Made by a program: the position numbers and the translations under genes
NCBI GenBank assembly: GCA_010015805.1
Contig: ML978124.1
Coordinates: 1,240,001 to 1,304,000, forward strand
Reading direction: 5' to 3'
Source: Rhizodiscina lignyota
Taxonomy: Eukaryota
Length of the DNA: 64,000 bases
Notes under the pieces: generated by a model
Databases searched by the model: none
The model's input: the letters and a program-made list of their open reading frames with translations, nothing else
What the model was told of the DNA's origin: nothing
Shown here: in pieces, positions 24,224 to 50,797 of the stretch
Position numbering within the stretch: the first letter of the stretch is position 1
Layout: the number at the start of each line of letters is the position of its first letter

Positions 24224-25994
24224 GTTTAGTATGTGAAGCTCGTCTTAATTACGGGAGAGGAAGAGTGGAAGTTTTAGATAGTAGATGTATGGTGCCTTGT
24301 GGGAGTTGAGATAGTCCGTGTGGCTGGTGGTTCGCATGACGACGCGGCGACGAATGACATTGGCTTGGCGCTGATACCCTTGTCCGTCCATGTTTATTGT
24401 TTTGGTATTAGCGGAACAACTCACATTATAGCTTCACTTCAAGGCCTCATGCCGCAATGCCTAGATTATGCTTCAATACAGCTACTGGTATCTCTGGAAG
24501 ATCACAGTATTGTTCTTTGATCAATCACCTCTCATTTGACGTCGTTTCAGAAGAACACGTCCTCCCGGGCAAGTTTGATTTCTTAGAGCTAGACTGATTT
24601 AAAAAAAAAAGCAAAATCATTTCTCACCTGTCAAGCACCTGCAATAATGCCTAAAACTTTATTCCCCGACTTTCTCTATTCTATACATTCCGGGTACACT
24701 CGGTATCTAACAATCTCTCCTCAGAAATCTCCGGCTGCATCTCGATAGGAACTATGAGTATGCTGCATAAGTCCTCTAGAAAAATTGACTAAAGCCAAAC
24801 GTCTGCACCCACAAACTAAAAACGATGAGAATGAGAAAGAGTTGTTACTTAACAGCAAACATTCATACTCCTGGACGTGATGGAGTACTTTTGTTGACAC
24901 GGGAATTAGGTGCCGCATAACGCTTCATGATCCCGCGATGGCCCCCAGAATGTTACTGGCTGGGCCTCTCCGTTTATCAAGAGGCCGAGATCGGTTCATC
25001 GGACCTTGGTGCAAGGACTAACATGGATCCATGCAGTTCTATCTTTGCACGTGACTCTGTCTCTTTGATTGTTTAAGTTATTCCGGCCACATGGAAACTT
25101 TGCTGCACGTAGCCCTGTCATGCGGCATGCCGCTAGGGATTAAAGCACAGTCGATCATTATCAGCTCAGCATCTCAGAAATGAAAAATTTGGTGTCGACG
25201 CCTTGCACAACCTCGAGACGAAGCCGGATGATTCAAACTGCCCTTTTAGGATTCCCAACAAAGCTATCGGGATAACCTATAGATTTATTTGCTCAACATT
25301 CTCAATATGGGTATTCCAGCTCTAGGCAAGCAGTATGCAGTCTTCGCTGTGAAGAATACGCACAAGCAAGTGCCCGTAAGAGCACGGCCCAACTGCACAA
25401 TGCAGATACAGTGCAGACCGCCTCCAAGCAATATCGACCAAGCCGGGCTGCCGGCCCAATGAATGTTCTTGTCACATTTATTGGAAAAGTAAGGAGGCTG
25501 GTAAGTGGCATTTCCATGCAGTGCTGCATGCTCGTCTGGGTACATCTACGTTTGACCAACTTTGCCTGATATTTCTACAAGTTAGCAAGCTGCGGCACTG
25601 ACCTCTTATTAGTTACACATTCGAATTGGTCTTACACCTCGTTCCGAATTCAAAGCAATGGCCGCACAACTGTAGTTTAACGGTCTAGTCTCGTGCCACG
25701 TCCGACCGCACAGTGGATTTCCGGCGTCACCCTTCCCAATCTCCTAGCAGCTCATTCTTTACTGAACCCAAGTTGTTGTCTTGCACCATTCCAGATTGCT
25801 CTCCTCTCTAACGATGACCTACTTAGATACTATGGTGTCATTCCATGCGTTCCTCTAGAGCATACTACTAACTCCATCAATCGGTAACGTCTGCACCTTG
25901 TCATGCTATAGCAGGTAAAGGGTGAAAGGGAACTTATTCATTCCAGGTCTCACACTGTTAGCAAGTGTCCTTTACTCAGGAAAACCAGTTAAAC

Positions 25995-26407
25995 ATGGTA
26001 ATATTGAATAATTCTAACAAGCCAATTAATATGTCTCTGACATTTTTAGTGCAGACTACCGGCCCGTCTGGAATCGATAAACTACGCATCGCCCAAAGGA
26101 AAAGCATAGAGACTCGTTATGTACTTCTATGGGGCGTAGACCCTTGGGAATTACCTGTAAGTAATCTGCCTGCAATCAAGCACTAGATACTATGCTAACT
26201 TCCTTCTCAGAGAAAACATGTATACATCTGGCATTGCGTACGTGGAGCCTAGAGAGCCTCTCAACAACCTATCCCTTAGATACCTAACGAGACGTCGAAC
26301 AGTGTGCGTGCGGCTACTCTGGAATCGGCATATACCTAGAGTCCTGTCCTAGATGCGGCCACTCGAGGTGCGCCAACTGTGAAACAATGAGGGTCCAAGT
26401 TCGGTAG
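25995..26407 (+). CDS. Small Cys-rich zinc-ribbon-like protein, copy 1 (~78 aa)
   Basis: Exons 25995-25997 (ATG, tentative), 26055-26156, 26211-26237 (RKHVYIWHC) and 26303-26407 (CACGYSGIGIYLESCPRCGHSRCANCETMRVQVR*). All introns are GT-AG with branch motifs. Confidence 0.75.
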
Positions 26408-27308
26408 ATCAAGTTATTGCTCTTTCACAAATGCTAGCAGGAGGTCTTAGCCCGGTCCTTATTTAACGTAACTTCACGGGGAATATCTAGGGCTGCCACT
26501 CAAACAGGCGTAGTAATCGTATATAATAAGTGTTTATTGTCCTATGTTAAGCTGATCACAAAGGGATGTAGCCCAACAATTAGTATTCAGCAAATCAGCA
26601 ATGCATAACAAAAGAAAAGCCTTCTTCGACGACTATGTCATTAGTGTGGATCAGTGTTCTCAAAGAATCGCAATATTCAAGAGGAGGCCTATCATGCTGG
26701 GCACAAGAGAGTGAGGTTTTACGCGGATTTTGAGTTTGACCGCATTAACGCCTTTCTCAACACTTGCTTTATGTATTTAGGAAGGCATTAAGAAGTTGAA
26801 TCGCGTGAAAAGCTTCTGCAACACATTAGGTCAGCCTGTAAGTAAGATGCAATATCATCTATCGACATTCGACTTTTATTTGGGGTAACGGACCTTGATC
26901 GTATCTTACTAACAAAGGCGCAGCTCTAACTGCATCTCGCCCGTGAAAGGAATGAATCAGCCCAACACAACTGCGTTGCTTCGGAGCTTACTATCTCAGT
27001 CCGGCCTTTCTATACTGCCTCATTTTAAACGCTAACGTTACTTTAGATAATCGCACCTTTTACACTTGCTACGGCGTACTTCTCAATACCACAGCATGCC
27101 ATCCTTTTCACGGCAGGTGTTAAATCCTTGGTCGTTCTAATTCTGATCATAGCGACAGTAATGAAGCTAGCCCTCGATACTGCATCACAACGACGAGCTC
27201 GGTGGTGGAAGAAAATTGTTTAAAGAGTTGGAGTAAGACGTTACACGACAACCGATTGCAGAAGATGTTGACGACAACTTGGTTGTGACTAGAGATGAGG
27301 CCGTGTAT

Positions 27309-27570
27309 GTCGATCGATTAAACTGATTGATTATGTAAATCTCAGTCTAGTTGACTGATTGTCAACTAATTGATTCGACTGAATATTTGGGATCTTAAAG
27401 CTCTGATTGGTGAGAGCCTACCGTTGGGCTTATGCCCTTCATTTGCTGTTCGTATGTAAAGCGTACACGGCTGTATTTTGTATAGCACACCTCTGCTAAG
27501 CCGACTGCAGTTGTCGACCAGTGGCTGATTGTAATATTCGATCAAATCAATCGGTCAGATTGATGGTCAC
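27309..27570. repeat. Palindromic/inverted short repeats, possible decayed MITE ends
   Basis: gtcgatcgatta...tagttgactgattgtcaactaattgattcgac (27309-27379) and a related gtcgaccagtggctgattg...tcgatcaaatcaatcggtc (27513-27556). Confidence 0.4.
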
Positions 27571-28581
27571 TATGTGTCAATGGCTGAGACTTGCACCTTT
27601 TCCTTCGCTGATATAGAGTTGCCTCTATTTCAACTATTTGTTCGATATTGAGGCTGGAGAGAGACAGTCGTGCCAGAGCTCAGGCGCAGCATCATATTAA
27701 TAGGTGGCAGGTCTGCAAGTCAGTTCTATGTTTTCAGTCTCCACAGTTTATTTCGGACGGCCAGACGAAAGAGACAGTTGGTTCTACTGTTCATCGTCAA
27801 GTCGGTAGAGAGTTCACATCGAAGGAAAGAAAGAAGTGCATTGATACGCCTCCAAGGAGACAAAAGTCGAGCCACAGCTGCAAACTGTCACCACCGTTCA
27901 CCACAAAATAAATATTGCGGAAGTCGGCGCAGACAGATTAGGATTCGCCACCTGGTCGAATATGGGCCAGCTAGATTGGTCTGATCGGCTGCCCACTGTG
28001 GGGCGACCAGAGCCATAGTTTCTTCAGTTTATCCTAATCTGGTTTCAAAGTATAGTGTGGCATGGCCAGCAGTCCAGACATTTTCCTTGTTCAAGTTAAG
28101 ATGTTGGGCGTGATGGCATGGAGACCGGCAGCATCTCTAATTTCAAGATGTATTCCCTTCAAGTATGGCAGGATAAAAGTCGTATTCGTGCGTCCTCCCA
28201 GGTCAGGGCTCTGCGATTCTAGCGATGAGGTACTCCGTTGAGGAACGTGGGTTCGCGTCGAGGTGAAGGTAGTGGCTCTGAGAAAGTTAGTGGTGAAGAT
28301 TTATCTCGCGTCGGATGCAGAATAGTAAAAGTTGAGACACCCGTCGGAGGGTAGAAAATGTCGCTCAGCTCTCTGTCTCATGCAACGCAGATCAGTGTCA
28401 GTTGTTTGTTCTCGAAAGAGATCTGCAGACGACGGGAGCTACGTGTGTGGTAGCCGTTCTGACTCTCCCCCCTTACTGCAGAAAGTCGGATGAGTGGCGT
28501 TCTCTCGAAGAAAGTCGGTCGCCAGGGGGTCAATTGACCAATCGAAGCTCAACCAGTACTCCGGAGCCCATACCTGGAGCG

Positions 28582-28974
28582 ATGAGTGGGACAGGTTTTG
28601 CTCACCTCTTTTCTTCCAAATTTCAATGTCAACAGCCTCCCACGCGACCCGGACTCGAGTGTTGGCACACCGACCAATCCCAAGCTACCTCGTGGCTGCA
28701 AGAGGACACGCTCAATGCGAGACCATGGATCTTAGCTGTATGTACGCAGTGTGCCGTGTCGTTTTATCATTGGCCTGCAATGCTGACTGCCTCGTTAGAA
28801 AAAACATGTCTATATGTGGGAATGCGTACGTGGAATACCTTCGAACCCTGACGAGACCTGACTGAACAGTGTACTTGCCGAATCTCAGGAACCAGCATCA
28901 TGGTTGAGCCTTGCCCCTGCTGCGGACACTCCAGATGTGCCAACTGCCAGACGACGAGAGTGATAGTTCGATAA
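28582..28974 (+). CDS. Small Cys-rich zinc-ribbon-like protein, copy 2 (~95 aa; start uncertain)
   Basis: Exon ending PWILA at 28737, 27-nt exon 28799-28825 (KKHVYMWEC) and 105-nt exon 28870-28974 (CTCRISGTSIMVEPCPCCGHSRCANCQTTRVIVR*). Same intron positions and phases as copy 1. Confidence 0.75.
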
Positions 28975-29410
28975 ATGCAAGGCGGGGAGATTATTGGTAC
29001 GGCGCTTTCAGGCGGTGATGAATACAGAGGTTCCAGGGCCTGAGCATTGTGCTTGATAGATCTAGATCGGTAGAACTATCCATTCGGATAGTGACGTCGA
29101 AATGTATAGTATTGGATTTTGTTCGCATTCTATATAATTTTAAGAATCGGATAATTTCGTGTGAACATTACGCTTTTCAAGGCGGGTCCTGGAGTGGGTA
29201 ATTTTTAGAGAGAGGTCGGTGAGTGACGATTGCGTTCGGTAGGGGGGGTCGCGCTATACAAACCCTTCCAGGTTCTTCTTCAGGTCATCCTGCATGAACC
29301 AAGGCGCCTCCAGCTATAGCTTTGTCCTGTTCCCCGGAATTATCATCTGACTCAATTCGTGCAGAGTACTCCGTAGGTGCATAAGAGTTGACATTTGTCC
29401 AGCGCGATTG

Positions 29411-30089
29411 TAACGTCTTTTACGCGGGCTTGGCGGGGCGGGTCCTTCACTCCCAACCCCCTATGATCCCTTACTGATTAATACAAATGCGCTAGCCGTC
29501 TGCAGCGCGTTTCGGGTTCGCCGTGTGAGCGGAACTAGTCCGATTCGACACGTCTTACGCACCACCCATCCTCTTTTTGATCCACACGACGGTTATCGTA
29601 TTGGTTAGATTACGCTCAAGCCCACTAGTCAAAATATTTTTTACTGCAAGGGGCGACTGCGAACCCGAAACGCGCTGTACGGTAGGCTACAAAAATTGGC
29701 TCTGAAAGGGGGAAGCTACCGTGGTTTTCGGGGAGAGCCGTTGTACGCTAAAAAACCCACTAACTCTCTAAGGTAGAGGGTGGATCCCTCCCTTTACGTT
29801 AGCTTGAAGGACAATCTTTACTCCGTAGGAGACGGTAGTTTTGGTTATAGAGGCGTAATTCTAAGGGCGTGCTTGATTTGCAGGTACTGATTATATTGGC
29901 TATACCTTAACCGTGCACTGATCAAGGACAGGCTGCCGAAGCCACGGCGTTTTTGGCGTACACCGACTCCCCCCGAAAACCACGGTATAACTACGTCAGC
30001 TTTGCTGTAAACGGCTAACACGATTGGATTAATTAGTAAGGGGGTCATAGGGGGCTGGGAGCCGAAGGCTGTGTCCGTGAAAGGCGTTA
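29411..30089. mobile_element. Composite non-autonomous inverted-repeat element: outer MITE-like element containing two inner MITE-like elements (Tc1/mariner-pogo type inferred)
   Basis: Outer imperfect IRs 29413-29506 / 30004-30087 flanked by TA. Inner perfect 19-bp IR cagcgcgtttcgggttcgc at 29503-29521 / 29659-29677. Inner ~36-bp IR ccgtggttttcgggg... spanning 29719-29985, flanked by TA on both sides. No transposase ORF. Confidence 0.7.
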
Positions 30090-30501
30090 TCAAATTTCAA
30101 TTGGGTTTTCATTTTCCTCTCTGTGACTAAACGGCATTGCCCATCTTCGGAAATGAAGCACAGTAAATTAAGGAAGTTATGGGAAGGCTCTCCATCCCTA
30201 AGAACTCAACAGCCAGAGCCGCACGAATAGGGGCCTATTGCTGGAATATACTATTATTAATCTCCTTGCAACTTTCCTCAGTCGTTACCGATTTCTTCAT
30301 GCAGCTCACTTTCGTCACGTCGTAGTTATTGCTCTCTCATTACTGCTTTCCCCTCAGAGCCCTCTGGACACAGCTTTGTCATTGCTCGATGCACGGTAGT
30401 ATTCGTGTATGCCAAGACTACACCCGCAGATTCTCATTACCACCTGGTGTTTAAGTATTGAAGCCAAATAGGTTTGTCATTATGTACAGCCGTATTCTTA
30501 G

Positions 30502-30687
30502 AAAAGGCACGTGTCCATCTGGGGAGTGTGTAGATGGAATCCTAAAACTCAGGCCAAGTGTCATGCGATACCTAATGACAAACTTGCATAGTGCTCGTGT
30601 GGCTACAGTGGCATTCCTATACGTACGGATGGGTGTCCTGCCTGCGCATATGCGCGATGTCGTAGCTGCTACACGACGAGGATTTAA
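30502..30687 (+). pseudogene. Zinc-ribbon-like microprotein, copy 3 (disrupted)
   Basis: Exon 30502-30529 is 28 nt (KRHVSIW + extra G + EC, a frameshift). The exon from 30592 reads CSCGYSGIPIRTDGCPACAYARCRSCYTTRI*VR, with TAA where copy 1 has CAA. Confidence 0.75.
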
Positions 30688-31520: not shown

Positions 31521-33482
31521 TTAATGGATAGCAGGATTGATTCCGACAAGCTTCATACCGTTTTCCAGCACTGTTCTTGTGGCCTCGAAGAGTGTCGCTT
31601 GAACTGGTGTAATACCGTCACTCTCCTCAATACCCTCAAAGCAAGAAGACAGGTGGTCAGTGACGCTCGCGAGATAGGCCATGACGGTCACTGGTTCTAA
31701 ATTCCTGTAAGTGGAGTTGGTGATCTCAGGGTATGTCGCCAGGAGCCGAAGAACGTTTGTGACGCCATCCTCTCGAAGGGAAGCAAAGTCCTCGTCGGAA
31801 AGTTCCACAGGATCCGGTGCAGTCTTGAGAACAGAGCACAGTCGAGCATACCAATACTGCAAGTCTGGACCAGTACCGTGTTCAAATGAAGTCATATGGC
31901 TGATGTCAAAGGCGTGATCATTTGCCCGTCTTGCAGATAATTCTTGGGCCAGAAGTGCAGTAGTTCCAACGGAGGCGACTGTCTCTTCCGTACTTCCAAG
32001 CAGGGTGGCCTTTTCTGGATTTTCCTTCAGTGATGTCCTCATTGCTGCTTGACATTGATCGAGAATGTCGTCCGGTGTATGCCCGCGACCCAACTTCTTT
32101 GACATCTGAGAGACTCCGCTGAAAGACACATACTCCAATTTTCCTGCTAGATCGGGTAAGTCCATGAGTTCGAGGATTTTGAAGAGTCGTGAGAAGTGAT
32201 CCTTGTTATCAGTCGCAACAACGTATATCATCTTGTCGAACGAGTACTTCCTGTCGCGATCCAAGACAGCCGCAAGATCTCTGAGCATATAAGTGCTGCT
32301 TCCCGTCCGGTCGCGGATAATTTCTCGGCCAGCTTTTTTGGTGAACTTCTTCAGGTCAATAATCCATGATGGCCCGTCCGCCTCACAAATTCCCTTGTTC
32401 TTCAAAATATCCTCAACTTCGGCCATAGTCTCTTGACTGACTTGCGATTCTCCAGAGTACTCATCGAAGCTGATATTCAGTCGACTATAGAGCTGATTAT
32501 AGCTGTCGATGTTGATTTCACGAACGCGCTTCCAAAATGCAAGTGCTTTCTCTTCTCCATCTTCCATTCTTTTGAAAAAAGCGTTGCGTTCGGCAAATAG
32601 CTCCTGTGTTTCCAGCTCGGCTGGATCTTTCCCTTCGTCCCGCGCCTTCTTGTAGGCTGCTTGCTCTGGTTCAAAGCGCTCGTATGTCTTGTGATAAACG
32701 TCGAAGAGATGTCGCAGTGGGTCAGCTTGGAATTGTCCTTCGGGTTCAAACTTCTCCCAGCCTGCACCTAACAGGCCAAGCGGCTTACCCCAGTCACCTA
32801 GGTAGTTAATCTTGGTGACATCCCAACCCATACTTCCGTAGATACTGGCGATAGAGGCCCCCAGGATAGTGCTCCGAAGATGCTTGGCCTGAAACTCGCT
32901 GTCGATGTTGGGGGACGAAAATTCGATCACCAACCTTTTGCGGCCGCTCTCAGGTGAGGTAAGATGGTGAAGCCCAAGTGACGCATCTCGACCGTAAGAC
33001 TGCTTGCGGTCATTGATGTAAGAAAGTACGAGACGCGGCAGAGTCCGTGGTTGATAAAACATCCGAAGATGCATGCCCTCTTCAAATGGACGACGAATAA
33101 AGAGCGGGCATTCCGGGAACTGATGAGATCGAGTTAACTCTAGTGCCGCCTTGTTGGGGGTAGCGTAAAGACGTAACAGGGAAGACTGTGCACCAACCTT
33201 TGTTATGAGATCCAAGGCCAAAGCGTGATAGTCGGCGCCGTGGCTAAGCTTCGGCAATATGGCAGCCAAATCTCCATTGTCAATATTACTGGGCCATTGA
33301 ATGGAGTTGTAGGCGTTGGCTGGGTCGCCCCCTACAAGGCTGCTGAGGATGTCTGCAAAGTACGACCGGGCAATATCCCGAGGCTTGTTCAGCACATCAG
33401 CCTCTGCAAAATGCGGTATTGGAGTTTGCAATCCAATGTCACCCAGAAGGGCTTCGAGGCCAGTAACAGTGAGGGTTGACAT
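31521..33482 (-). CDS. Divergent arginyl-tRNA synthetase-like protein
   Basis: IEFSSPNI...HLRSTILG, INYLGDWGK, FDEYSGES, YMLRDLAA, FDKMIYVV and TGPDLQYWYARLCS match fungal ArgRS. Probable in-frame 78-nt intron 33120-33197. Confidence 0.85.
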   Translation of the reverse strand: MSTLTVTGLEALLGDIGLQTPIPHFAEADVLNKPRDIARSYFADILSSLVGGDPANAYNSIQWPSNIDNGDLAAILPKLSHGADYHALALDLITKVGAQSSLLRLYATPNKAALELTRSHQFPECPLFIRRPFEEGMHLRMFYQPRTLPRLVLSYINDRKQSYGRDASLGLHHLTSPESGRKRLVIEFSSPNIDSEFQAKHLRSTILGASIASIYGSMGWDVTKINYLGDWGKPLGLLGAGWEKFEPEGQFQADPLRHLFDVYHKTYERFEPEQAAYKKARDEGKDPAELETQELFAERNAFFKRMEDGEEKALAFWKRVREINIDSYNQLYSRLNISFDEYSGESQVSQETMAEVEDILKNKGICEADGPSWIIDLKKFTKKAGREIIRDRTGSSTYMLRDLAAVLDRDRKYSFDKMIYVVATDNKDHFSRLFKILELMDLPDLAGKLEYVSFSGVSQMSKKLGRGHTPDDILDQCQAAMRTSLKENPEKATLLGSTEETVASVGTTALLAQELSARRANDHAFDISHMTSFEHGTGPDLQYWYARLCSVLKTAPDPVELSDEDFASLREDGVTNVLRLLATYPEITNSTYRNLEPVTVMAYLASVTDHLSSCFEGIEESDGITPVQATLFEATRTVLENGMKLVGINPAIH

Positions 33483-34333: not shown

Positions 34334-36552
34334 TCACACTGGGAGCGCGAGGGTCTCTGAACTGCTAGTGGCTCTGGGCATTACCCCTACTCCTGGGTAG
34401 GCCAAGTCCCCAGCTCCACTGACTGGTGGGTCCGCGCGCACCTGTCTCTGCTCCACATCCGAATCTTGCGGGTGATCGTGAGCAGACCTTAGCACTGCCC
34501 TTATTCCCTTCGTCAAGAAGTGGTAGACACACTTCGAAAATGTCACAATATTCACGTATGCAACGACTGTCTTCCACCATTGATCCTTGCGCCGCATGGC
34601 ACTGAGCGCACGAAACACAAGATTCGTCGCAGCCGTAATGATGACTATGGCAATAAGGAAGGACCCGACATTCATTTTGAAAGGCATGATCGTTTGCGGT
34701 ATTGAGAAAGTGGCGGTAGTAAGCGCAAAAGGAGCAATGATCTGAAAGGAATTAGCTACCTGAAGGTGAAGAATTTCCGACAGACGAACCGCAATTGTGA
34801 ATTCCGTGGCCACTCCGTTGTGTTGAGCAGCTTCATAACCTTGGAGGCCTAAGCGAACTTGTTCGAGGTCTAGGCGGCGTCCTTCAATGCTCAAATGATG
34901 TTGGAGCTGCATGTTCACAGCTTGGTAGAAATTATCGCAATCTTCATGCAAGCGAATCAAATCCCGCTGGAGATCTTCCAGGCTATCGAATGTTTCGTTG
35001 ATAGCGTCAAGTAATAGCGGAATACCCGAAAGCCGGCCATTTGAGATCTCTTGGGAAGAACAATCCATTTCCGTGAAGTAGCTGATATCGCGGTTGATGA
35101 ACCTCTGCGTGGCCTTATTTGTCTTCGAAAGAGCACCTATGAGGTGGTTCAAGAAATCCATAGCTTGTAGGATCCAGTCGAAGTTTTCTTTAGCGTTTTC
35201 AGCTGGATCATCCGTGGTGCCGAGGTGTCCAGATAAATGAGAAGAATATCTTTTCGCCTATTAGAATGATCAGAATTCAGAAATAGTTCATAATAAAAAT
35301 TGTGGCTCATACCTGTATCTCTTGTTTAATAATGTCTTGCACAGTCCCGATGAGTTCTTCCCACTCTTTTAGCGCCTGTGCCGTTCTGGAGTTCAGTATT
35401 GTAAGAAAATACTCTCTAGGGTTCCAAATCGGAAAGTTTGCATCAAATATGTCGCTAAATTCATTCCAAGCTATCGGATCGGAGAGAAAGCCTTGTATAG
35501 GTTTAACGCTATCTTCGAAGTCTTCGTCATCGACGTCAGTATCGTCAAAAGCATACGCGATCCACCGCGAGTTATCTGACCCGCATATGGCGAATGAGAA
35601 CTGAGCTTCGTATACGACATAATGCTCCAGGCCTCTAGAGTGCGGTCTACGCACACTCAGGAATGATAAATCCAACTCCATACACTTTCTTCTTGGTTTT
35701 ATCTCTTGATTTGGCAGCGACGAGCATATTCTCAAAGGGCAGAACGGTAGATGGAAACTGAGCTGGAATCTGATGAAGCCCTTGGTCTACAGAATATCGT
35801 AAGCATTCCTTCAGTGATCAACATCAGTACACAAAGCTAATATTTGAAACCTCAGGGGACCTACCGGAATTTTGACTCCCATTGATGCTTCACGCCCCAA
35901 GTGTCTCCATATGGCCTCTTTCAAGGCCGAGATTTGGTGGCCTGCCGCTGTCTTCGCAAGTGCCAGAACGTAGGATGGGTTTGCATTAGCAATGTAACTA
36001 CGGCAAAATGATTAGCTAGGATAATTCATTAACCCGAGAGAAAGGGAAGTCCTTGCATTAAACGTCTGTCCGCATCAACTTTGTTTTCGCAATCAAATCG
36101 CTATGACGAACTCAGTTTAGCTTGCGATACGCTTGGGGAAATAACAGGGATCAAGTGCGTACCGGCTCGTCCAAGTGACGGCAGAGGTCTGTTGCATCTA
36201 GCTCATCTGGATGTGATCGCCGACCCTCACTGACGTCCCCACGTGGACAATTCCTTTCATCTAACCAAACAGTACACTTCAAATTATCCAGTGATGTGCT
36301 CCGGAGGAAAAGTTCCAAAATCTTGACTTTACATGACGGTATTGAACCTTCAGTGTCCTTCAGGAAGTCTTCGATGTCAGTAGAGCGGGTACAAAACTCC
36401 GTTTTTGCCTCGATCCTACAGCGATCTTCTTTATGAATTTCATTCCGGTCCTTTGAAAATATCAAGTCCCAGTTCTTAGCATAATGCCGAGCCCCATAGC
36501 TTCTCTTTTCGCAGTTCATTGCTCTCTGTGGTCTTAATCGCTCTGGACTCAT
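34334..36552 (-). CDS. Fungal hypothetical protein with CorA-like C-terminal two-TM region, multi-exon
   Basis: ORFs 36151..36552, 35307..35735 and 34334..35161 lie in order with splice signals between them. Motifs FQLSFHLPF, YEAQFSFAICG, DPIAW and PIWNPREYFL. Helical region followed by two hydrophobic segments. The CorA-like label is from recall of architecture. Confidence 0.65.
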
Positions 36553-37859
36553 GTAGGATGCACTCCTGTGCAGCCAATCAGGAAGGTCAATGTATACTAA
36601 TCAGCCATATCGTCTCGTTAATGGTAAGTATTATGCCAAATTCGTAGCGATCATTTGCAAGGATCAGCATTGTGAAAAGAATGCACAAGTTCAGAGTATG
36701 CAAAAGTGAAGATCGGACACGGCGGGCCATGAAAAACTCTCATCAACAATGCCTAAATGCTTCAGAGAGCCCAACTATCCTAGTGAAGACCACAAGGCAA
36801 CGGGTGCTGCTGAATTCGTTGGGCAGGAAGTAAGGCAATCGACTTCCAGAATATCATGGCGCGGAGCACGCCACGTCATGAAAGGAATTGGATGACAGTG
36901 AAAATTCGCATTTGCATAAGGCATACTGCATTGACTTCGTAAGGCTGCATTTCACGACAGACAGAGCTCGTATGTTGATGTTTGACTCGTGCCACAGTTC
37001 GTAGACTGAATGGTGCGCGACATGCAAGGCGTTCGGGGCATTGTGTTGGCGGATGCCAACTTTCGTCACTTCATCCAGATGAATATCATGGGGTCCGCGC
37101 TGACAGTGTGTATTGAGCGGAATGCTAAGTGGACAGGCCGTTGATCTGGGTCACAAGTCATCTGTACACGTGATAGAGGTTGTGTCGTGGCCAGTTTTGT
37201 ATCGCGGCTATTTGTATCGTTGGGTACTGGACGCCCTGTTTGATTGATGAATGAAAAGGCAATCGTAGAGAACAGCGCAGCGCGATTACCGCTGCATAAT
37301 AATCCTGCAAGTAAATGCTGCTGAAGTCAACACTGGTCGAGGCTTCTGGGAATCTAGTATAAATGGGTTTCACAGGGGCAAGTGCTATTTGAATCAACGA
37401 CTCAGCTATCCTGCCAAGCACAGTACGATAGAAGTTCTGAGTCATCCCACAGCGATGTGGATCGTACCCCTTGTCTTGCGGGGATTGGCCGAAGTGGAAA
37501 GGTCTCTCTACACGATATTCAGTACAGCAGGCGTCGATGGATACAGGAAGTGTTACTTGATTATGTATCATAATCAGCGTCAGTGATAGCCTAAATGACA
37601 CGAACTTGGACTCCTGACTTATGACCACTGAGGATGGAAGGGGGCCCAAATACCGGTCTGCTTTGAAAAATGAACAAGGCTGAGGCTGTGCACATTAGAC
37701 CCACGAGCTATTCGGACTCCTTTAGGCCTTTTATCTCGCTTGCCAAAAAAAATTGATGGTCGCCTTCGTTTCTTCCACTCCATTTCCACCTCAGATTTCC
37801 AAGCGTAGCTTATCACATCCCCAGATACGATTAACTCTTTGAAGCTAACTTTATTTAGG

Positions 37860-40536
37860 ATGGTAGTAGAGGCGCTAGCTGCCGTGGGGCTAGCTGGAAA
37901 TATTGCTCAGTTCTTGGATGTCTTGACGAGGCTCATCCGTGGGACCCACGAAATATATACATCCGCCGACGGCTCTACAAGAGAAAATTCGCAGCTTGAT
38001 GAGATATCTGATTACGTATTGACTTTAAGCAGTCGGCTGGAATCGGACATTGAGTCAAAGCTGAAGCGCAGTCGAGCTGAACAGGAATTGATTGTACTTG
38101 CAAGAAGGAGTAAGGATGAAGCGGATAAACTTCGACTGAAGCTATCCAAGGTCAAACTAAGTCCTGGCGAAAGTAAGATGGGTAGCCTTGTTCAGTCATT
38201 CAAATGCGTCTGGAAGTCGACCGAATTTAAGGCTATGGCAAAAGAAGTGGACACTTGCAGGAAGCTTCTTGCGAATCAGATCCTTGATTTGATAAGGTAA
38301 TATTGCCCATCCTACCGGGACCATCTTCGCTCACTATGTCACTATCATAAGGGAGGACACTTCGACTATCCTGAAAGCCCTTAGAAACCTCAAAGATGAA
38401 GCCAAGGAAACCGATCGTGTTCGACAAACGCAATTCCAGGCTTTGGCAGACGATCTGCACTCGATACACTCGATAAAGTTGCGGGGGGACTCAAAGCCTG
38501 ATGAGCTTGAGTCGAAGGTAGCGTCTTCAGATTTTGCTATACTCAAAGATGTGCTAGAGGGCGTCGTGGAAACCGCTGCGAGAATGAGAAAAGAGCAACT
38601 GATTCTGGCACATTTGACTTTCGAGCAAATCAAAGCTAGGTATTCGAGGCTACCGGAAGCACATGCTAGAAGTTTCAGTTGGATCTTCCGGGAACGGACT
38701 GAAACCGATGAATACTCACCAAAGCCCAAAACCGGATTCACCGAATGGCTGAAAGGGCCCAATCTGAATGACCATTTCTACTGGATCTCAGGTAAGGCAG
38801 GCAGCGGGAAGTCAACTTTAATGAAATACATCTGCGAACATCCAGATACTGCGGAGCATCTACTCCTTTGGGCTGGACACTATCAGCTTCTCACTGCAAG
38901 CTTTTTCTTCTGGGATTCTGGAAGAGAAGCAGAGGTGGGTTCCCTATTACAACAGTCTCAAGAAGGCCTTCTACGGACGCTACTATTTGAAATCTTATCC
39001 AAATGTCCAAAGCTAATCTCGAAAACGCTGCCATTGAGGTGGGAAAGAGAGCACCAACTACCATGGACTGTTCTGGAGCTCCTGCAAGTCTTTAGAACTC
39101 TTGGAAATAACTTGGACTCTTCTTGCCGATTCTGCTTCTTCATTGATGGTCTGGATGAGTACAAGGGCGAACCAAGTGATCTCTTGGACGTTGTTTCACG
39201 GTTGGCAAACTGCGAAAATGTCAAGGTTTGCATCTCAAGTCGGCCCTGGCCGGTGTTCAAGGCAGCTTTCGAAAGTCTGGCCCATCGTCGACTATTCGTA
39301 CATGACTTAACGAGTGACGACATTGCGGCATACGTTCATGACAGGCTTGAGTCTAATTCTCTTTTTGTTCGAGCAAAGTGCGAAGATTCCAGATATCAAG
39401 CACTTGTGGACGAAATTGTAGAACGAGCTCAAGGAGTGTTCCTTTGGGTTTCCTTAGTGGTTCGGTCACTTCTCAACGGCATCACCAATGCAGACACAAT
39501 ACCAATCTTACAGCGAAGGCTAAGAGCTCTGCCAACGAGGCTACAATCTTTCTTTCAACATATGCTGGATTCGATAGATGACGTATACCAAGTTCAGATG
39601 GCTCAAACTTTCCAAGTTGCAACTGGTGGGCAAACTCAATTACCTCTATTCCTCTATTATATGATAGACGAGCTAGACGAGGACCCTCGATATACTATCA
39701 ACTTGCCAGCTCAGACTCCGGGAATATTGCCAAAGCGTGGCCATAATGGCTCTGACCTGACAAGTCTGCCAGAAGAAATTATCTTGGCGGAACAAAAGAT
39801 GGCTACTCGGCTTGAAGCTCGCTGCAAAGGGCTGCTTGAGGTTTCGACCCATTCTGGGCACAATCGATTTCCACTCAAGAAAGTCGATTTCTTGCATCGT
39901 ACCGTCAAAGACTTTCTGAAGTCTAAGAAGATATCAGAAGAGCTGCAGGAAAAATCTGGTGATCATTTTCAACCAGATAGCGCCATTTGCCGTGCTTTTC
40001 TCGGGGTTATCAAACAACTTCCATTTGAGGCAGATGAGCATCAGGATCGAGGCTACCTTTTAAGTTTGATCGACGACTTCCTGTACTACGCTCGTAGAAG
40101 CGAGGAAAATACAGCTGACCTCATTCACGAGGCCATCAGGGAGCTTGAGCGAAACTTGATCAGCAGATATCCGGCTAGAGATCGGACCCATTGGGCGTCG
40201 AAGAGACCACATGTAGAGCGAATCCACGGAGTCTTATTGCAATCCGCCAAAGCTAATTCGGTATTTGAACTTTGTGTTCAGTACGGACTTATAGCTTATG
40301 TAAAGAGGCGGATAGCAGAGGATCCTTCACTCTTGACACGCGTCTGGCGAAAGCCGCTCTTGTCTCACGCAGATCATCCGTCGATCACAACCAAGTATCC
40401 TACTGTTGACTCAAAGCGCATGGTTCAACTCCTGGTTCAATGTCAACCTGAAGTAACAGACGCTGATTCTCATATTCAAGCCGACGCTATCGACGCAACT
40501 GTTACATCCGAGACGGATGGCTTCCATTGCTTGTGA
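37860..40536 (+). CDS. NACHT-domain (STAND/NLR-like) protein with fungal N-terminal helical domain and no C-terminal repeat array
   Basis: EALAAVGLAGNIAQF N-terminus, WISGKAGSGKSTLMK Walker A, FCFFIDGLDE Walker B, VCISSRPW, AQGVFLWV and VDFLHRTVKDFL. Intron 38297-38351. Confidence 0.9.
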
Positions 40537-41086
40537 ACAGATCGGTTCGAAGATTACACAACTTTGCTCAGATTTACAGTCATAACTCTGAATCGCTAGC
40601 AAGTATCCTTCTGGGTCAAGCCGAGCGAAACCATCGGGAGAGCATTTGCAAGACTGGATACATCTTCACCCGTCGTGAGAGAGAAAACTTTCTGCGCGGG
40701 TGTACATGTTGGTCTAACCAAGGCTATGCACTCACCCGCCTAGTTGTAGTTACACCGAAAGAAACGGTAATTGGCATCAAATTATGCAAATTTCCATTCT
40801 GGCGTAAGCAGCGTCTATCAGCGAAAATAGCATTACAACTCGCTAATGTACAGCCAGAAAATGAATACGGTGATCTCTCGTCTTTTAGGTTGCCCACCAC
40901 GGCCAGCATTCGCCGTTTTCCTGTACCTCCGTATGCCACTTGCCAAATAAGCCGATGGTCCGAGTTGGACTAAAATCTCCTGCAGCTTCCAAATTCGCAC
41001 GTAAACTAACAATGAGAGTCTATTTATTACAGTAATAGCACTCGATAGCTTCTTGATTGCTGAAGCTGATCTAAAAAATCGCAATG

Positions 41087-41706
41087 TTACGGCTTTTGGA
41101 TGTCGCTTTGCGACCAAATGCCGGGAACAACTGAACGTCGAAAGTCTTTGTGGGAAGCAGTATTGCTATTTGGACCAGCGCGTGACACCCGGGTGTATGA
41201 GCTGCGATACGAGGATCGGGCGGAGTATCGAACATATCTCTCGCATGTGTTGTGAGGTTTGGTAAGGGAGAAAGGCTCTAAGGGAACGCTCGAAGGATGT
41301 CGATCAGGAGGTGAAATTAGAGCTTCACAGGGCTCCGTTGGAGGGGCGTCGGAGCAGGTGCTAGCGCTTCCGTGGTAGTGTATCACTTGTTGATGAGAAA
41401 TCGAGTATCCAGCGAAGTTCACGCCTTTTCGCTGCGATGGCGCCTTCGTTAAACGCATTCGTACTCGTGTTGTACGGCAGTTTCCACATCGAATATGGCC
41501 ACAAGCAGGACATGCATCCGCGAGGATCGATATACGAGAACATCCGCATGTGCACTAGTGGCGTGTTAGCTTTCAAATGTATATACAGTGAGTAATGCTT
41601 CCCGTTTGCATACACATTCCCACACGTAGACGTGCTTTTTCTAAGAAGATAGAGTTAGCTTACATGGCTAATAGCCTACCAGCAAGAGTATATCACATAC
41701 AGGCAT
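41087..41706 (-). CDS. Zinc-ribbon-like microprotein, copy 4, with stop lost and ~120-aa C-terminal extension (5' end uncertain)
   Basis: ...MP (41706-41701), intron 41700-41641, exon 41640-41614 (KKHVYVWEC), intron 41613-41555, then CTCGCSRISILADACPACGHIRCGNCRTTRVRMR reading on into ORF 41087..41458. Confidence 0.7.
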
Positions 41707-45360: not shown

Positions 45361-46240
45361 GGTGCCCATTATCTATTGGTGTCCCTAGAATTGATATCGT
45401 ACCGATATATGATGCGCAGAGCGGATCATGATTAGTAACTGCACAAGAATCAGTCTAGTCCTGATATTGAAACGAAAGCGTCAATATATCGTAGGTGCCC
45501 TGGTATTAAAAGAATTTTTTTTGTTTGGGGTGGGGGGGTTCTCGAGGCTTTGACGGCGAAGGGACTTGAAAGGAAACCGGCATACTAGCAAATAATAATT
45601 TGGAATTCCATCATTAAAACCAGAAATTCGCTTGGAGCGTATTCGTCAAAACTAGTGTGAGACAGTAAAAAGAGGTGATAACAGTTCGTTCAGGCAAACG
45701 ACCGAAGGAAACAAGGCAATCGATTGCAAAATTACCCTAGCTCGTAAGCAACCGCCACGTAGCTAAGCATGGTGGGCAATGCTGGTGCGAGGAACGCGGT
45801 TGGACACTTCGTCCGCAAGGCGTTCTTTACATTTGCCATCTCATCTGGGGTAAGCTTTTGTATACAGCAGTGGCGTTTTGTCCGAAAACTGTTGAATCAT
45901 TCAGCTCTTCACACGCGTTATTTAGTGCGGGGAAGAAAAGAGACAAGGATAGTCGTAGGATGGAACAGTTTTGAATGTAAGCAGTATTCTGTGCTTTGCG
46001 AAACAGGTACAAACGTTTCTGGGCAACCAACCTCCGGGGAGGTCTCAATGTCTTGCAGGTGAAGGAAAGCGAACGTGTCCAGCTGGGAGTGCTTATCGAT
46101 CACGACTCGGATTTGTTCCACTACTGGCCTCGAGTAACCTCGGAATTATTAGGCCTCTCCACGTTTCTCGTGACTTCGCTGTCGTAATGCGGCTCTGGTA
46201 CCAACTACACAGCCTCGAGAATTTGCCAACTCAGCTCGAT

Positions 46241-46554
46241 TTATCGAACCTTCACCTTTGTGATCTCGCAGTCCTCGCGTCTGGTACGGCCACATCCTGG
46301 ACATGCATCGAAGAGTATGCTGGTTCCTGCGTTTGCGCGCGCTGTATTTCGGGTAGGGTCAGGCGCCGTTCCACATAACCTACGCATTGCCATATATACA
46401 CATATTATTTTCTGAGCGCAGTTAGCATTGCAACTCCAAAGTTAGATGGACATGAGTTTATGTACATACGCCAGCTCCAGAGGGTTCGGTGTGAGTAAGC
46501 TTTCTACCTCCGGCAACTGGCCATATCATTGATCAATTGGAGTCTCTCTGGAGT
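46241..46554 (-). pseudogene. Zinc-ribbon-like microprotein, copy 5 (disrupted)
   Basis: Exon 46411-46384 reads K*YVYIWQC (TAA at 46405-46407). The last exon 46341-46241 is 101 nt rather than 105: ..ANAGTSILFDACPGCGRTRREDCEITKVKVR*. Confidence 0.75.
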
Positions 46555-47939
46555 CTGAAATTAGTGAGAGTGAGATTGGGGGGAATTCATTTGCGTTTCT
46601 GATTATGATCCAGTCCGGAGAGAAGATTTCAAAGTGGCGGCAGCAGCCATGTAGCGAAAAGTGTAGAGCGAAAGAGTCGTCGATTGAGTCTACTAGCTAA
46701 GGCGGGCTGAACCAAACGGCGCTAAACCAAGCACGTGATACCTGTTCGAGTCCGGATGACAAAAAGGGTACCTTGGTACAACTTAGCAACGCAACAAGCC
46801 GGACCAGATTGGCCATTGCTCCGCTTTTTACTCTGCTGGCACCCGTGGCACTCGTTACATGTTTACCTACTAAGTTAGGGCAAAGTGTGTTTCTCTATGC
46901 TTTAGCCTTATCCAGTAAGCTAGAAATATCCTATGTGAAAAAGGGGTGAACTCTAAAATCCTGTTTTGAAAGGTTGGTCTGTTCTGCCTGTCGTACTCCG
47001 AAAATCGACATGCACCTACCCGCATATTGATATTGAGATAGCGACCGCAAGGATCTTACCTAATTTTGCTTAAAATCCACAATGGCTTCACCAGTTTTGC
47101 CCATTTTGTGGGGATTAGTGAGAGATGGAAGTCATTGCATTTACTTCGATCTGCTTGCATTTCACTATCAAAGCTGCGCTAAGAACTAATACAGTTGTAA
47201 CTCATCGGTCTCTACAATAGCAACCACTCCTTTCAAATGGCCCGAAATCGGATTCAAGCTGTGGCTAAACTTTGGCTACACTCTTGGAAACTTCGTACGA
47301 ATAATTTTATATTAGTCGTTCGGTGAATTTGAAATGTTGATTACCTTGTTATTAGCGATGTGTCTACGTATGGGCGTGCGTATGTTGACACCTCAAGCCT
47401 ATCTAACTTTCGTCACATTTGGAACTTAACAATTATCGAGTAGTGTAGCTGCGGCCAGCCAGCAATAAAGATTAGAGACGAATCCTGTCGTGTTTCCAGC
47501 TACTATCCGTGCTCAAATTGCCCGACTACGAGAGTGCAGATAAAGACGACCCAGGGAGAACGATGCTGTAATATAACGCATGAATGACAGGCCAACTCTT
47601 GTACAGAAGCAAAGTCAATGATAGTATATTCTTCAGTCGCATCTGACTGCATTGCAAGGATTGAAGGAGGCAGTGCAAATCTTGAGAAGGATCTCTTTGG
47701 CATATACAGTAGTAGTGCTCCGAACGAGCGTCATCGAAGCGACCAAGCATCTGGTTTCTACTAAAAAAAAACTAAAACTATTGCAGTCAACATTCCAACA
47801 AGTTCCCAAAGTCAACCTGCTAACCCAAAGGCTTGGGTTTTGATATTATCTGCTTCAAAATGCGGAGGTCGCAAGGCGCAATAGCAATGAATTTTCCGAG
47901 ATGCAAATTCCATCTGCAGGCTGGCCTCATCATCAAAAC

Positions 47940-49305
47940 CTAGTTTGCGGTGCTCACGCTCTCCTTGCGTTTCTTCGCCTTTTTGCTTTTCTTTGGCGAT
48001 TTGAGTTTTGGCGCCTCGTTTTCAGAATCCGTACCCTTCAAGTTTTCTGCTTGTGGTGATTCACCGTTTGTCTGGCTGATTCGACGGGGCGTTTCAAGCG
48101 ACTCTTCTCGAATGGTTTTTGTATGCTCTTCAGAAGACATTCCTGCAGAGAACTCCGTTGGTGTCTCATCAATGGCGGGTTCTTCCAAATGACGGACAGC
48201 GGTGTCGAACCCATTTTCAATCGTGTAAGACTCATTTGTCTAAAGCAGATCAGTCCCATTTGTTTAGTGTGGTGTCTCATACGTACTCCTGGCCGTAAGC
48301 TGAGCGTGAACCCATCCCCATTCTTCGTTCCGTTATGGAGGCCAGAATTGATCGTCAACATTGTTGCTGATTCTTTTCGAGGCTCTTGGTCGTGAATGGT
48401 TGCTTTGGCACGGTTAGTATCCACTTCAAGCCGTCCCTCTGCAAGATTTTTACGCCGATCTTACCGTTCTTGATTCCATCACCGTTCGTAATATCATTAC
48501 CCTTCACAATTCCGTTCTTCTCTCGAGGCTGCTCAACGGTCGGCTCCTCAACATTTGCATGAGCTGCAGCAAGACTCCTGACTTTGACCATCTGCTCTTT
48601 GTACATCTCTGCGACAGCCTTGAACACAGCTCTGTCAAAAACCGCATTCCTCCCAATAACAGCGGGGAGTCGGCCTTCTATGATGATGGTATCGTCGGCC
48701 ACCAATTTGGTTTTGATCCACTTTCCGACCTGTTCCTGAAACCAGGACTCATTCGGCGGCAGCTTCGGGGACACATCTTCAACAACCAGTTGTATGTCAA
48801 AGACGGAAAGTTTTGCGCTCAAATCGTTCATCCTTTCTTTCGCCATCTCTTCCAAGCGTCCCAGGTCACAGAGCAGTGCTGCGCAATAAGCCTGCACGCT
48901 CCTTTTGAACTCCGTAGTGGTTCTCGAGTCATCCGGAAGGTCATCCAAGCCGAAGATGTCATAGCCGCCAGTGCTGACGAAATGGCAGAGTGTATGGCCA
49001 GCATCTTCATCGACATCAGATAAATCGATCGGTTGGTTGGCAGGGACAGCGTCAATCCTCCGCTTGAGACCCAGGTGCCTTATGGCATTTGCATGATGGA
49101 GTGAGTATGGTGCGCCGTTTGGACCAATGTGAAATGTCAGCGATGGAGAAGCATATGGACTACACGGATGGAATCAGTATTTGTTTGAGGTACGGAAGGT
49201 CTCCGTCAGGGAAATTTACGAGATGGTAGAAGGACTATGCACTTGCTCAGGCACCTGCTCTGCGCCAGTCTTTTGGCCCTCTTTGAGCTTTACGTCGGTA
49301 GCCAT
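47940..49305 (-). CDS. Degenerate BTB/POZ-like domain protein with acidic tail and Lys-rich C-terminus, 3 introns
   Basis: PYASPSLTFHIG...IDLSDVDEDAGHTLCHFVSTGGY...EFKRSVQAYCAA is the fungal degenerate-BTB pattern. The track ORFs are joined by introns, including a 62-nt GTAAGA...TACTAAC...AAG intron. Confidence 0.75.
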
Positions 49306-49855
49306 GATTGTGGACCAATTGAACAAATAATGGTTGCTGCATCCGCTCAGAGAGATATGGAAAAGCGACAGCAGTTGAAGGAAAACGGAAGATCGCTGGC
49401 ATTTACTGAGGCACACGACAACTATTCCTTTTAACAATCATAAATGCGGGGAATCACGTTGTCAGAAACTCAGAAGTGTGGAAGAGCCTCAAAATCCGAA
49501 CGGGGCGTAAAGTCTGGATGCCGCCCTCGACGTGGTGAAGCTCAATTGGCGCTCGTAGCTGCAACGCCAACAAACCACCAGGCTCACCGGTCGGGCCAAC
49601 CCAAGCACCTGGGAATTCGACCATCATAGCTATCACCTACGAGAATTCTGATATGCAGAGATGACGGGAGCGCACATGCAGAATACTGCTTGAGGCGATG
49701 TGAACGTGTGGGAGGTTGCCTTGTGACGAGATCGGTGTGCCTGCGTGGTCAATGGCCAATTCATTTGGCGATCGTACTAGGCATGACATGTCACGCATTA
49801 GACACTGCTGGGTTTGCCCCGGCCTGTATGTAGGTTAACTGCCGCCGATGTTGTT

Positions 49856-50360
49856 GCTCGGTGAAGCCTGATGGTTGAAAAGGCAGAGCATGACGAATTT
49901 GCCTCTTCAGCACCAGCGAGAGCTGCACTGAAAGCTTGCTTTGTTCTGCGGGAGATGATGGTTATTGAGAACACGCTGCATTAATGAACACAGTCCATCT
50001 TTGCTTCAGAGCGGCGTTGAGCTCGACGAAGCCTGAAGGTCGGAAGGCTCGAAGGAAGGCTCGAACATGGGCTAGTTTGCCTCTTCGGGACCAGTGGGAG
50101 CCTCTCCGACAGCTTGCGTTGCTCTGCTGTAGACAGTGTTTACTAAGAACACGTTGCATCAATGAACACAGTCTATTTATGCTCCAGAGGGTCCTTGAGC
50201 TCGGTGAAGCAGGAAGGTTGGAAGGTCGGAAGGATGGAGCATGAACAAGTTCGGCACTCCAACGCCAGCGAGAGTACCCCCGAAATCCGGATTCGCTTCG
50301 CTTCAAACGGTGTTTATTGAGAACACGCTGCATCAATAAACACAGTTTGTGTTTGCTTCA
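49856..50360. repeat. Degenerate tandem repeat, ~177-bp unit, ~3 copies
   Basis: ttattgagaacacgctgcat.aat.aacacagt at ~49962, ~50139 and ~50314. gctcg..gaagc..ga.ggt at ~49856, ~50021 and ~50199. Confidence 0.8.
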
Positions 50361-50797
50361 GAGATTGTGTATCGAGGCAGTCCAGCATTTTAGGGCTATA
50401 GTGTAAGTATTTCGTCTCCATCGATGTTTGGCAGAGCAAGAGGCGTCGTACCAGCTGCTTACCTAATTCATCTCGACGATGAAGACGACGGTCTCGGGGA
50501 CGATAGTCAACGACAGAATACACCATGGCTCAATTGATTGAACGTCGACAATATCTCGGAGTTCCAGGTCGAATTAGATTCGGCACCCAATTCATCGTCC
50601 GGCACGGTTAATGAAAATGAAGTTCAATACACCTTTGAAGCTCCTTTAGAGGAGTTAGGCTTCTGATTTTAACCTAATTGTGCTCCTTTTGAGAGCTACA
50701 TGCTATGCGTTGCCTCGCATAGAACCCCACAATGTAACTAGCAGACGCCTGCCGACGCAAGAATGTTCGGATAAGTCCGAACCCGGCACTGATTGGA

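Follow-up and report, generated by a model that had tools for sequence, protein, structure and literature searches.

A 64-kb window of the Rhizodiscina lignyota genome (the whole stretch of DNA analysed here, from contig ML978124.1) contains an island of about 26 kb with genes for an arginyl-tRNA synthetase (ArgRS)-like protein, CorA-like proteins and small cysteine-rich zinc-ribbon proteins, along with an NLR-type gene and a BTB-like open reading frame (ORF). With moderate confidence, we favour the reading that this island arose by local duplication and partial decay of a three-gene cassette conserved in Pezizomycotina, that the NLR and BTB-like genes are bystanders, and that the cassette operates by the mechanism proposed in the last section. 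Such a cassette would have three parts. The first is a small protein, present in one or more versions, whose N-terminus varies and whose C-terminus forms a zinc ribbon. The second is a CorA-like protein that lacks a GMN motif and has two membrane helices at its C-terminus behind a large cytosolic portion. The third, encoded directly downstream of the CorA-like gene on the same strand, is an ArgRS paralogue in which the HIGH signature takes the form x(G/A)(K/R)H. In the window, the genes and remnants of this trio are as follows, with m1 to m6 denoting the zinc-ribbon copies and E values for these taken from a hidden Markov model (HMM) of the zinc ribbon.

31521..33482, minus strand: ArgRS-like gene; 627 aa after removal of a 78-nt intron (33197-33120); HIGH reads QAKH; DALR domain kept
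34334..36519, minus strand: CorA-like A; intact; N-terminal exon 36154-36519, middle exons and a C-terminal ORF; gene model P0189
43372..44667, minus strand: CorA-like B; pseudogene over several reading frames
26954..27235, plus strand: third CorA-like relic; located between m1 and m2, with just the transmembrane end left; 41% over 96 aa, E 8e-14
26211..26407, plus strand: m1; mini-exon 26211-26237, last exon 26303-26404, stop TAG; intact; E 5.3e-17
28799..28974, plus strand: m2; mini-exon 28799-28825, last exon 28870-28971, stop TAA; intact; E 3.7e-12
30502..30687, plus strand: m3; mini-exon 30502-30528, last exon 30592-30684; donor site and C-terminus degenerate; E 4.2e-13
41453..41640, minus strand: m4; mini-exon 41614-41640, last exon from 41554 down; E 3.9e-12
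47356..47545, plus strand: m5; degenerate, CPxCGH knuckle lost; E 4.5e-06
46244..46411, minus strand: m6; degenerate, the first Cys knuckle, a later Cys and the AG acceptor are missing; E 3.1e-07

Read along the strand of the ArgRS-like gene, the order is m6, CorA-like B, m4, the NLR gene (on the opposite strand), CorA-like A and the ArgRS-like gene, with m3 facing the last of these. Thus m6 lies upstream of CorA-like B on the same strand, m4 shares the strand of CorA-like A and the ArgRS-like gene, CorA-like A directly precedes the ArgRS-like gene on that strand, and m3 is convergent to the ArgRS-like gene, 0.84 kb from its 3' end. The other strand carries m1, the CorA-like relic and m2 as a further, inverted remnant, and m5 is a degenerate stray. 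This layout mirrors that of a metagenome locus, L007, in which a CorA-like gene, a zinc-ribbon gene, a second CorA-like gene and the ArgRS-like gene follow one another. Most of the 26 kb is one cassette, duplicated and partly decayed. The degenerate zinc-ribbon copies, the broken CorA-like B and the CorA relic bear out the pseudogenes described in the initial annotation of this DNA.

Linkage of the three genes in other genomes

We scanned metagenome contigs with an ArgRS-like alignment, which yielded 80 loci with up to 10 kb of flank. These were classed by their HIGH region, and a locus was taken as informative when it had at least 1.5 kb of flank on one side.

Degenerate-HIGH loci: 16 in total, 10 informative
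Canonical HxGH loci: 40 in total, 30 informative (339 kb of flank)
Bacterial-type loci: 24 in total, 19 informative

When the zinc-ribbon HMM was run on all six-frame ORFs of at least 25 aa from the loci and the window, it gave 17 matches at E ≤ 1, of which six are in the window and 11 in degenerate-HIGH loci (one each in L005, L007, L009, L011 and L024, two each in L006, L008 and L010), with none elsewhere. Eight of the ten informative degenerate-HIGH loci therefore have a zinc ribbon. CorA-like genes were found by tblastn from the window in six of the ten (L005, L006, L007 with two copies, L010, L011 and L021), in each case as the co-oriented gene immediately before the ArgRS-like gene, and pieces at the edges of L009 and L024, detected by all-against-all BLAST, raise the count to eight. 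Put differently, a CorA-like gene is directly upstream in eight of the nine degenerate loci that have upstream flank (L008 has none). Neither zinc-ribbon nor CorA-like genes occur in any of the 30 informative canonical loci or the 19 bacterial-type loci. One-sided Fisher tests give p = 5.9e-7 for zinc ribbons and 5.5e-5 for CorA-like genes, values that are overstated, the loci being phylogenetically related.

Named genomes point the same way. In Lophium mytilinum (KAF2489383 and KAF2489384) and in Leptodontidium sp. MPI-SDFR-AT-0119 (KAH6712647 and KAH6712648), the accession numbers of the ArgRS-like and the zinc-ribbon protein differ by one and their contigs are equally long; from this numbering we infer that the two genes are adjacent in these fungi.

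Several observations weigh against a conserved cassette. First, the loci are not independent, since L005 and L011 are 75% identical and L021 and L024 are 88% identical, and many of the canonical control loci may come from organisms that have no zinc-ribbon family altogether. Second, the association has gaps: L017, of the RPDH type and with 3.6 and 3.4 kb of flank, has neither partner gene, and L021 has the CorA-like gene and no zinc ribbon, being a locus with no downstream flank. Third, adjacency in Lophium and Leptodontidium is read from accession numbers, and only two of 11 comparable named zinc-ribbon representatives adjoin a listed ArgRS-like gene. The other nine are on other contigs (two each in Zopfia and Hyaloscypha variabilis F, and one each in Bisporella, Lepidopterella, Leptodontidium sp. 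2, Phaeosphaeriaceae sp. and Stagonosporopsis), which implies either that the zinc-ribbon family is wider than the cassette or that linked copies are unannotated. Finally, Pfam does not support the CorA-like label: Pfam CorA (PF01544) gave no match at E ≤ 10 or E ≤ 1 among window or locus ORFs, and Foldseek returned nothing for the CorA-like model at E ≤ 0.001.

Alternatively, the genes may have accumulated independently in a hotspot, the adjacency of the trio being an inherited order or the product of co-duplication without selection. The position of the island between housekeeping blocks, its pseudogenes and MITE-like element, the occurrence of zinc-ribbon genes away from ArgRS-like genes and the close kinship of some loci would all agree with this. 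However, the ArgRS-like proteins of positive loci are 38-88% identical to one another, and adjacency holds at 38-53% identity and in both deep branches of the ArgRS-like clade. The trio is also kept in differing arrangements: in L005, L006, L007 and L011 the zinc ribbon is co-oriented and upstream, and in L008, L009, L024 and the window (as m3) it is convergent and downstream. The remaining neighbours are unrelated between loci and include a sugar transporter, a Zn2Cys6 factor, an SdhB-like protein, a cellulase and a WD40 ORF. Because identity is low, arrangements differ and the other neighbours are not conserved, the linkage is not plain synteny, and we consider independent accumulation doubtful.

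The ArgRS-like protein and its two partners

The ArgRS-like protein is identical to a named R. lignyota protein (P0001) save for the annotated intron. It matches Pfam tRNA-synt_1d (3.7e-65) and DALR (1.3e-14) and aligns with yeast ArgRS (1BS2) at 384 bits over residues 129-663, placing QAKH opposite HAGH and MSKKLG opposite MSTRKG. The catalytic and anticodon-binding domains of a class I ArgRS are thus present and the H-x-G-H form of the HIGH signature is absent, in agreement with its earlier description as a motif-degenerate ArgRS. The change is shared: the third HIGH position is Lys or Arg in 119 of the 120 best database matches, the remaining one being unreadable, and all named matches are from Pezizomycotina, species of Alternaria, Bipolaris and Talaromyces being among those with a clade member. 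A private pseudogene is ruled out by this sharing. No further ArgRS-like relics were found in the rest of the window.

In a tree of 93 query-anchored cores from the window, named proteins and metagenome loci, all 32 tips with a degenerate HIGH group together (SH-like support 0.999), in a clade that adjoins the canonical HAGH loci L003, L013, L018 and L045. Descended from canonical fungal ArgRS, this clade splits deeply into two branches, one of 26 tips with x(G/A)(K/R)H and one of six tips with TxxH, SMAH or RxDH. The loci of the second branch carry T(A/S)(A/T)H (L008, L009, L021 and L024), SMAH (L010) or R(P/T)DH (L017 and L026), and the zinc-ribbon neighbours in this branch end in ...HKQTR/K and lie downstream and convergent. 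Clade members vary in length: Talaromyces P0008 and P0009 have 831 and 952 aa, against about 650 aa, and about 40 metagenome proteins have about 510 aa, many of these gene models being without the N-terminal 140 residues. Members of odd length may be fusions or gene-model errors.

We tallied active-site positions in 40 clade members, using as a reference N153, E294, Y347, D351 and Q375 of the yeast enzyme, which we take to be its arginine-binding residues and whose numbering was checked on the 1BS2 alignment. Equivalents of N153, E294 and Y347 are kept in 40 of 40, that of D351 is D or E in 39 of 40, and that of Q375 is H in 31 and N in seven. Within HIGH, the Gly (G161 equivalent) is K in 36 and R in four, the last His (H162 equivalent) is present in all 40, and position 1 is Q in 25, H in eight, E in five, and L and K in one each. 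The second signature, MSTR in yeast and MSKK in the window, has M in 34 and S in 30 of the 40, with K or R at its fourth position in 24. Together, the conserved residues, the DALR domain and the uniform K/R in HIGH indicate that the arginine pocket is kept and that the ATP signature has taken a new, conserved form. The HIGH change therefore looks like remodelling and not decay, and an active or ligand-binding protein fits the pattern of conservation better than the decoy suggested initially.

It could instead be argued that the ArgRS-like protein is a housekeeping enzyme, for example an organellar ArgRS with an unusual HIGH, and that its neighbours are irrelevant. A wide distribution, good conservation, a retained arginine pocket and DALR domain and an invariant last HIGH His speak for this view of the clade. 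Yet canonical HAGH sister sequences exist as separate loci (L003, L013, L018 and L045), and Bisporella, Zopfia and Hyaloscypha each have two clade members within one species. To our knowledge, Gly to Lys/Arg within HIGH is not a known active variant of class I synthetases. In addition, the N-terminus has acidic residues early on and aligns with the yeast cytosolic N-domain, and the conserved linkage argues for a specialised role. We regard a housekeeping function as quite improbable.

The paralogue origin that we favour has partial parallels. Yeast-type cytoplasmic ArgRS (1BS2/1F7U) shares with the clade its fold and domain order, a catalytic Rossmann domain followed by DALR, as well as SSPN, the E294, Y347 and D351 equivalents and the last HIGH His; the clade differs in its x(G/A)(K/R)H signature, in the change of MSTR to MSx(K/Q) and in forming a separate clade linked to a CorA-like gene. 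HisZ, PoxA/GenX and YadB/GluQRS are paralogues derived from aminoacyl-tRNA synthetases that have non-canonical roles, and the likeness lies in the reuse of a synthetase fold whose active site has changed and which works with its own partner or substrate. Unlike them, the ArgRS-like protein has a membrane protein and zinc-ribbon proteins as its partners. We know of no ArgRS-derived non-canonical paralogue, and none turned up in the titles and abstract openings that our literature searches covered.

Two CorA-like paralogues had been reported, of which A is intact and B is broken, with the third copy a relic, and the CorA label itself finds no support in Pfam or in a GMN motif, the place of which is taken by SIPQ in the window and AIPE in L007. 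A is identical to a named R. lignyota protein save for annotated introns. Its C-terminal ORF encodes two hydrophobic helices (hydropathy score 2.27), and a window ORF at 36154-36600 on the minus strand is the conserved N-terminal exon of the gene, as found by all-against-all BLAST of the loci; no Pfam family matched this exon. A protein search with the CorA-like ORF had the organism's own protein as its sole match, the family being too divergent for the word index. A 16-residue stretch at 30077-30124 on the plus strand, 0.5 kb upstream of m3, matches the start of a CorA-like middle exon (62%, E 0.005) and may be a fourth relic.

The resemblance to CorA comes from features and structure. In an Atlas feature search, 23 of 30 CorA-like matches are in CorA-bearing sets; in VIA, CorA/Mrs2 stands at ranks 3, 4, 6, 7, 14, 29 and 36 with Z 7.9-10.8, a range common for helical bundles. 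The AlphaFold2 (AF2) model has a mean predicted local distance difference test (pLDDT) score of 61.5, with the helical bundle at 85-95. As in CorA/Mrs2 channels, a long helical stalk bundle appears to be followed by two C-terminal hydrophobic helices, whereas GMN and a Pfam CorA match are missing and there is an extra conserved N-terminal exon. We call the protein CorA-like in build and not a CorA-family magnesium channel. A separate candidate identity, that of a fungal arginine-cyclodipeptide synthase (RCDPS; commentary PMC11610942), seems unlikely, as the Atlas CorA signal counts against it; no RCDPS sequence was compared.

The third component was initially annotated as five paralogous Cys-rich microgenes. 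All five are real, with the motif C-x-C-G...CPxCGHxRCxxCxTTRV at each site, but there are six copies, the sixth being degenerate (46244-46342, minus strand), and each is the last exon of a small multi-exon gene. DNA homology among the window copies extends about 110 nt upstream and includes a mini-exon of 24-27 nt, bounded by YAG and GTAYGT and accompanied by CTAAC-like branch sites, that encodes (K/R)KHVYxWxC and, joined to the last exon, reads W-x-C-C-x-C-G. The intron between W-x-C and C-x-C-G spans 44-65 nt in the window and 57 nt, in frame, in L011 (3504-3698), and both copies in L006 (836-997 and 4774-5064) are without it. Upstream exons probably end at 26156 for m1 and 28737 for m2. In m4, every Cys is kept, the usual stop is lost and the ORF continues to 41090.

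A profile of four window copies, searched against 1.84 billion proteins at E ≤ 0.001, defined a family of 57 representatives of 48-282 aa in which the domain is mostly C-terminal. Its consensus is KKKxVYxWxCC-x-CG...CPxC...RCxxCxTT(K/R)VxVR, and 37 aligned sequences all keep seven Cys as well as W, P and R. The run ...KKKxVYxWxCCxCG... is unbroken in 37 of the 57, and 20 lack the WxCCxC join. Because these 37 relatives read through, the L006 copies are intronless and the L011 intron is in frame, the splice model is supported, and with it the predicted structure of the window copies as small genes of several exons whose N-termini vary.

The AF2 model of the domain has a mean pLDDT of 86.9, and its first and last strands pair. 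No Pfam family was matched by the zinc ribbons. A PDB profile search placed the C-terminal zinc finger of MIOS (GATOR2) in the top row (E 0.011, 19 bits, not significant), followed by ribosomal eL37 (E 0.4-1, not significant), and Foldseek gave nothing at E ≤ 0.001, its top rows being archaeal ribosomal zinc ribbons and rubredoxin-like domains at E > 2. MIOS and eL37 are both nutrient-sensing or RNA-binding zinc modules. As we understand Trm112 and eL37, with which matches are weak only, the family has in common with them a short Cys-knuckle domain with a basic stretch, and is set apart by its seven invariant Cys plus W, P and R and by having no significant Pfam or PDB match.

The C-termini of these proteins invite comparison with ribosomally synthesised and post-translationally modified peptides (RiPPs). 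A RiPP-like cassette would modify the peptides, the ArgRS-derived enzyme adding arginine or activating a C-terminal arginine and the CorA-like protein exporting or anchoring them. Peptides with variable N-termini share a recognition-like C-terminal domain beside one enzyme whose guanidinium-binding residues are conserved; among 25 representatives whose end coincides with that of the domain, 13 terminate in Arg, and in m1, m2, m6, L005, L006 and L011 the stop codon comes straight after ...VxVR. Against this, there are no tailoring enzymes among the neighbours, and some family members terminate in Q, K, A or T. A cassette of this kind seems unlikely to us.

The NLR and BTB-like genes and the rest of the island

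Two further genes within the island were initially included in the same system.

37860..40539, plus strand: NLR-type gene; NPHP3_N 1.7e-22, NACHT 2.5e-08, DUF7791 3.2e-23
48355..49173, minus strand: BTB-like ORF; 27 of 30 Atlas matches in BTB-bearing sets, a lead only

The NLR gene had been described as a NACHT gene without repeats, and it is one: NPHP3_N, NACHT and DUF7791 are present, and Pfam detected no C-terminal repeats (WD40, ANK or TPR) in its ORF or in the next ORF (40467-40973). Its first exon (37860-38296, plus strand) starts MVVEALAAVGLAGNIAQF. Its match to Pfam SesA is weak (E 0.024; 15 bits, with the cut-off at 26), and the N-terminus is probably a HeLo/SesA-type domain. The gene thereby resembles fungal NLRs with SesA/HeLo-like N-termini, from which it differs in having no C-terminal repeats and in being a gene that is unlinked to the cassette elsewhere. 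The degenerate BTB gene fared less well; the Atlas matches are in its favour, but there is no Pfam PF00651 match at E ≤ 10, and a PDB sequence search found no BTB chain.

The initial annotation proposed that all five kinds of gene form one defence or allorecognition module, in which the NACHT protein would be the switch and the CorA-like protein its effector. All five do lie within 26 kb, paralogues in the island show birth and death, and the NLR gene is inside the cassette, on the strand opposite to it and between m4 and CorA-like A, with m4 about 0.9 kb beyond the NLR 3' end. However, tblastn found homologues of the NACHT, SesA and BTB-like sequences in none of the 80 metagenome loci, and Pfam identified no NACHT or BTB family among 110 flank ORFs of the ten informative loci, hand-chosen outside the trio genes from 189 ORFs of at least 110 aa. 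In addition, the NLR appears to have a SesA-like N-terminus of its own, weakly matched, and would then need no separate membrane effector. The expectation that the components would be linked elsewhere more often than by chance holds for the ArgRS-like, CorA-like and zinc-ribbon genes and fails for NACHT and BTB. We judge the NLR and BTB-like genes to be unrelated bystanders of the trio, and a single five-part module to be highly improbable. Beside one locus there is a WD40-repeat ORF (L021:2015-2638, minus strand), 3 kb upstream of the CorA-like gene, with no NACHT found beside it.

The borders of the island and its remaining features are as follows.

23353-24244, minus strand: syntaxin/PEP12; left border of the island
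50674-51870, minus strand: G-patch/SPF45; right border of the island
29717..29987, no strand: miniature inverted-repeat transposable element (MITE)-like element; 38-nt terminal inverted repeats, 89% complementary
49856..50363, no strand: tandem repeat; three units of about 178 nt

As first annotated, the island is accessory sequence of about 26 kb between two housekeeping blocks, with PEP12 and SPF45 at its borders. The left flank comprises Cut8, MTR4, ELP1, lipoate ligase and syntaxin/PEP12, and the right flank G-patch/SPF45, an AMP-binding enzyme, aconitase, an EF-G-like protein and Vps5. MITE-like repeats had been noted in the plural; one element with inverted ends is present, as a single copy in the 64-kb window. 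The tandem-repeat units are 71-77% alike, and the array is just upstream of the SPF45-like gene. The window has the look of fungal DNA, with short introns that have GTAAGT or GTAYGT donors and CTAAC branch sites.

No tRNA genes were found in the window, and the ten informative loci have one tRNA-Glu (L007) and none in the other nine. In the window and these loci, the cassette is therefore without a dedicated tRNA(Arg).

Proposed mechanism and its meaning

The linkage, the clade, the motif changes and the gene structures are observed; the mechanism that we infer for the three-gene cassette centres on the ArgRS-derived protein. It would still bind arginine or an arginine-like group, and binding of tRNA(Arg) is probably retained because the DALR domain remains. 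Its ATP site appears remodelled, so that it would not be a standard synthetase. The protein would act on or with the zinc-ribbon proteins, either as its substrates or as its obligate partners, at a site that would be a membrane oligomer made by the CorA-like protein. The turnover of paralogues suggests a diversifying use, for example in conflict or signalling. A complex prediction for the Lophium pair (ArgRS-like P0006 with residues 58-108 of zinc-ribbon P0136) scored 0.51, and one control scored 0.59.

A more specific version holds that Pezizomycotina co-opted an ArgRS-derived enzyme to work on zinc-ribbon peptides that the ribosome makes, with a GMN-less CorA-like pentamer as the membrane partner or exporter. 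Such an enzyme would recognise or activate the arginine of the C-terminal ...KVxVR, or add arginine from tRNA. We give this version only a small chance of being right; if true, a tRNA synthetase fold would underlie a novel type of peptide-modification or conflict system in eukaryotes.

Neither a fungal ArgRS paralogue clade nor the ArgRS-like, CorA-like and zinc-ribbon trio was described in the titles and abstract openings that our literature searches covered. Our analysis has several consequences for how these genes are read. First, the automatic annotation as arginine--tRNA ligase is probably wrong for the ArgRS-like clade. Second, gene callers often miss or mis-splice the small multi-exon zinc-ribbon genes, as the 20 of 57 representatives without the WxCCxC join illustrate. 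Third, the linkage provides a first functional handle on three families that are now named 'arginyl-tRNA synthetase' or 'hypothetical protein', and it turns the trio into a testable hypothesis about the binding, modification and co-expression of its three members. Finally, a synthetase paralogue that has a remodelled, conserved ATP motif and the same two partners across fungal classes would point to an unrecognised role of the synthetase fold in eukaryotes.

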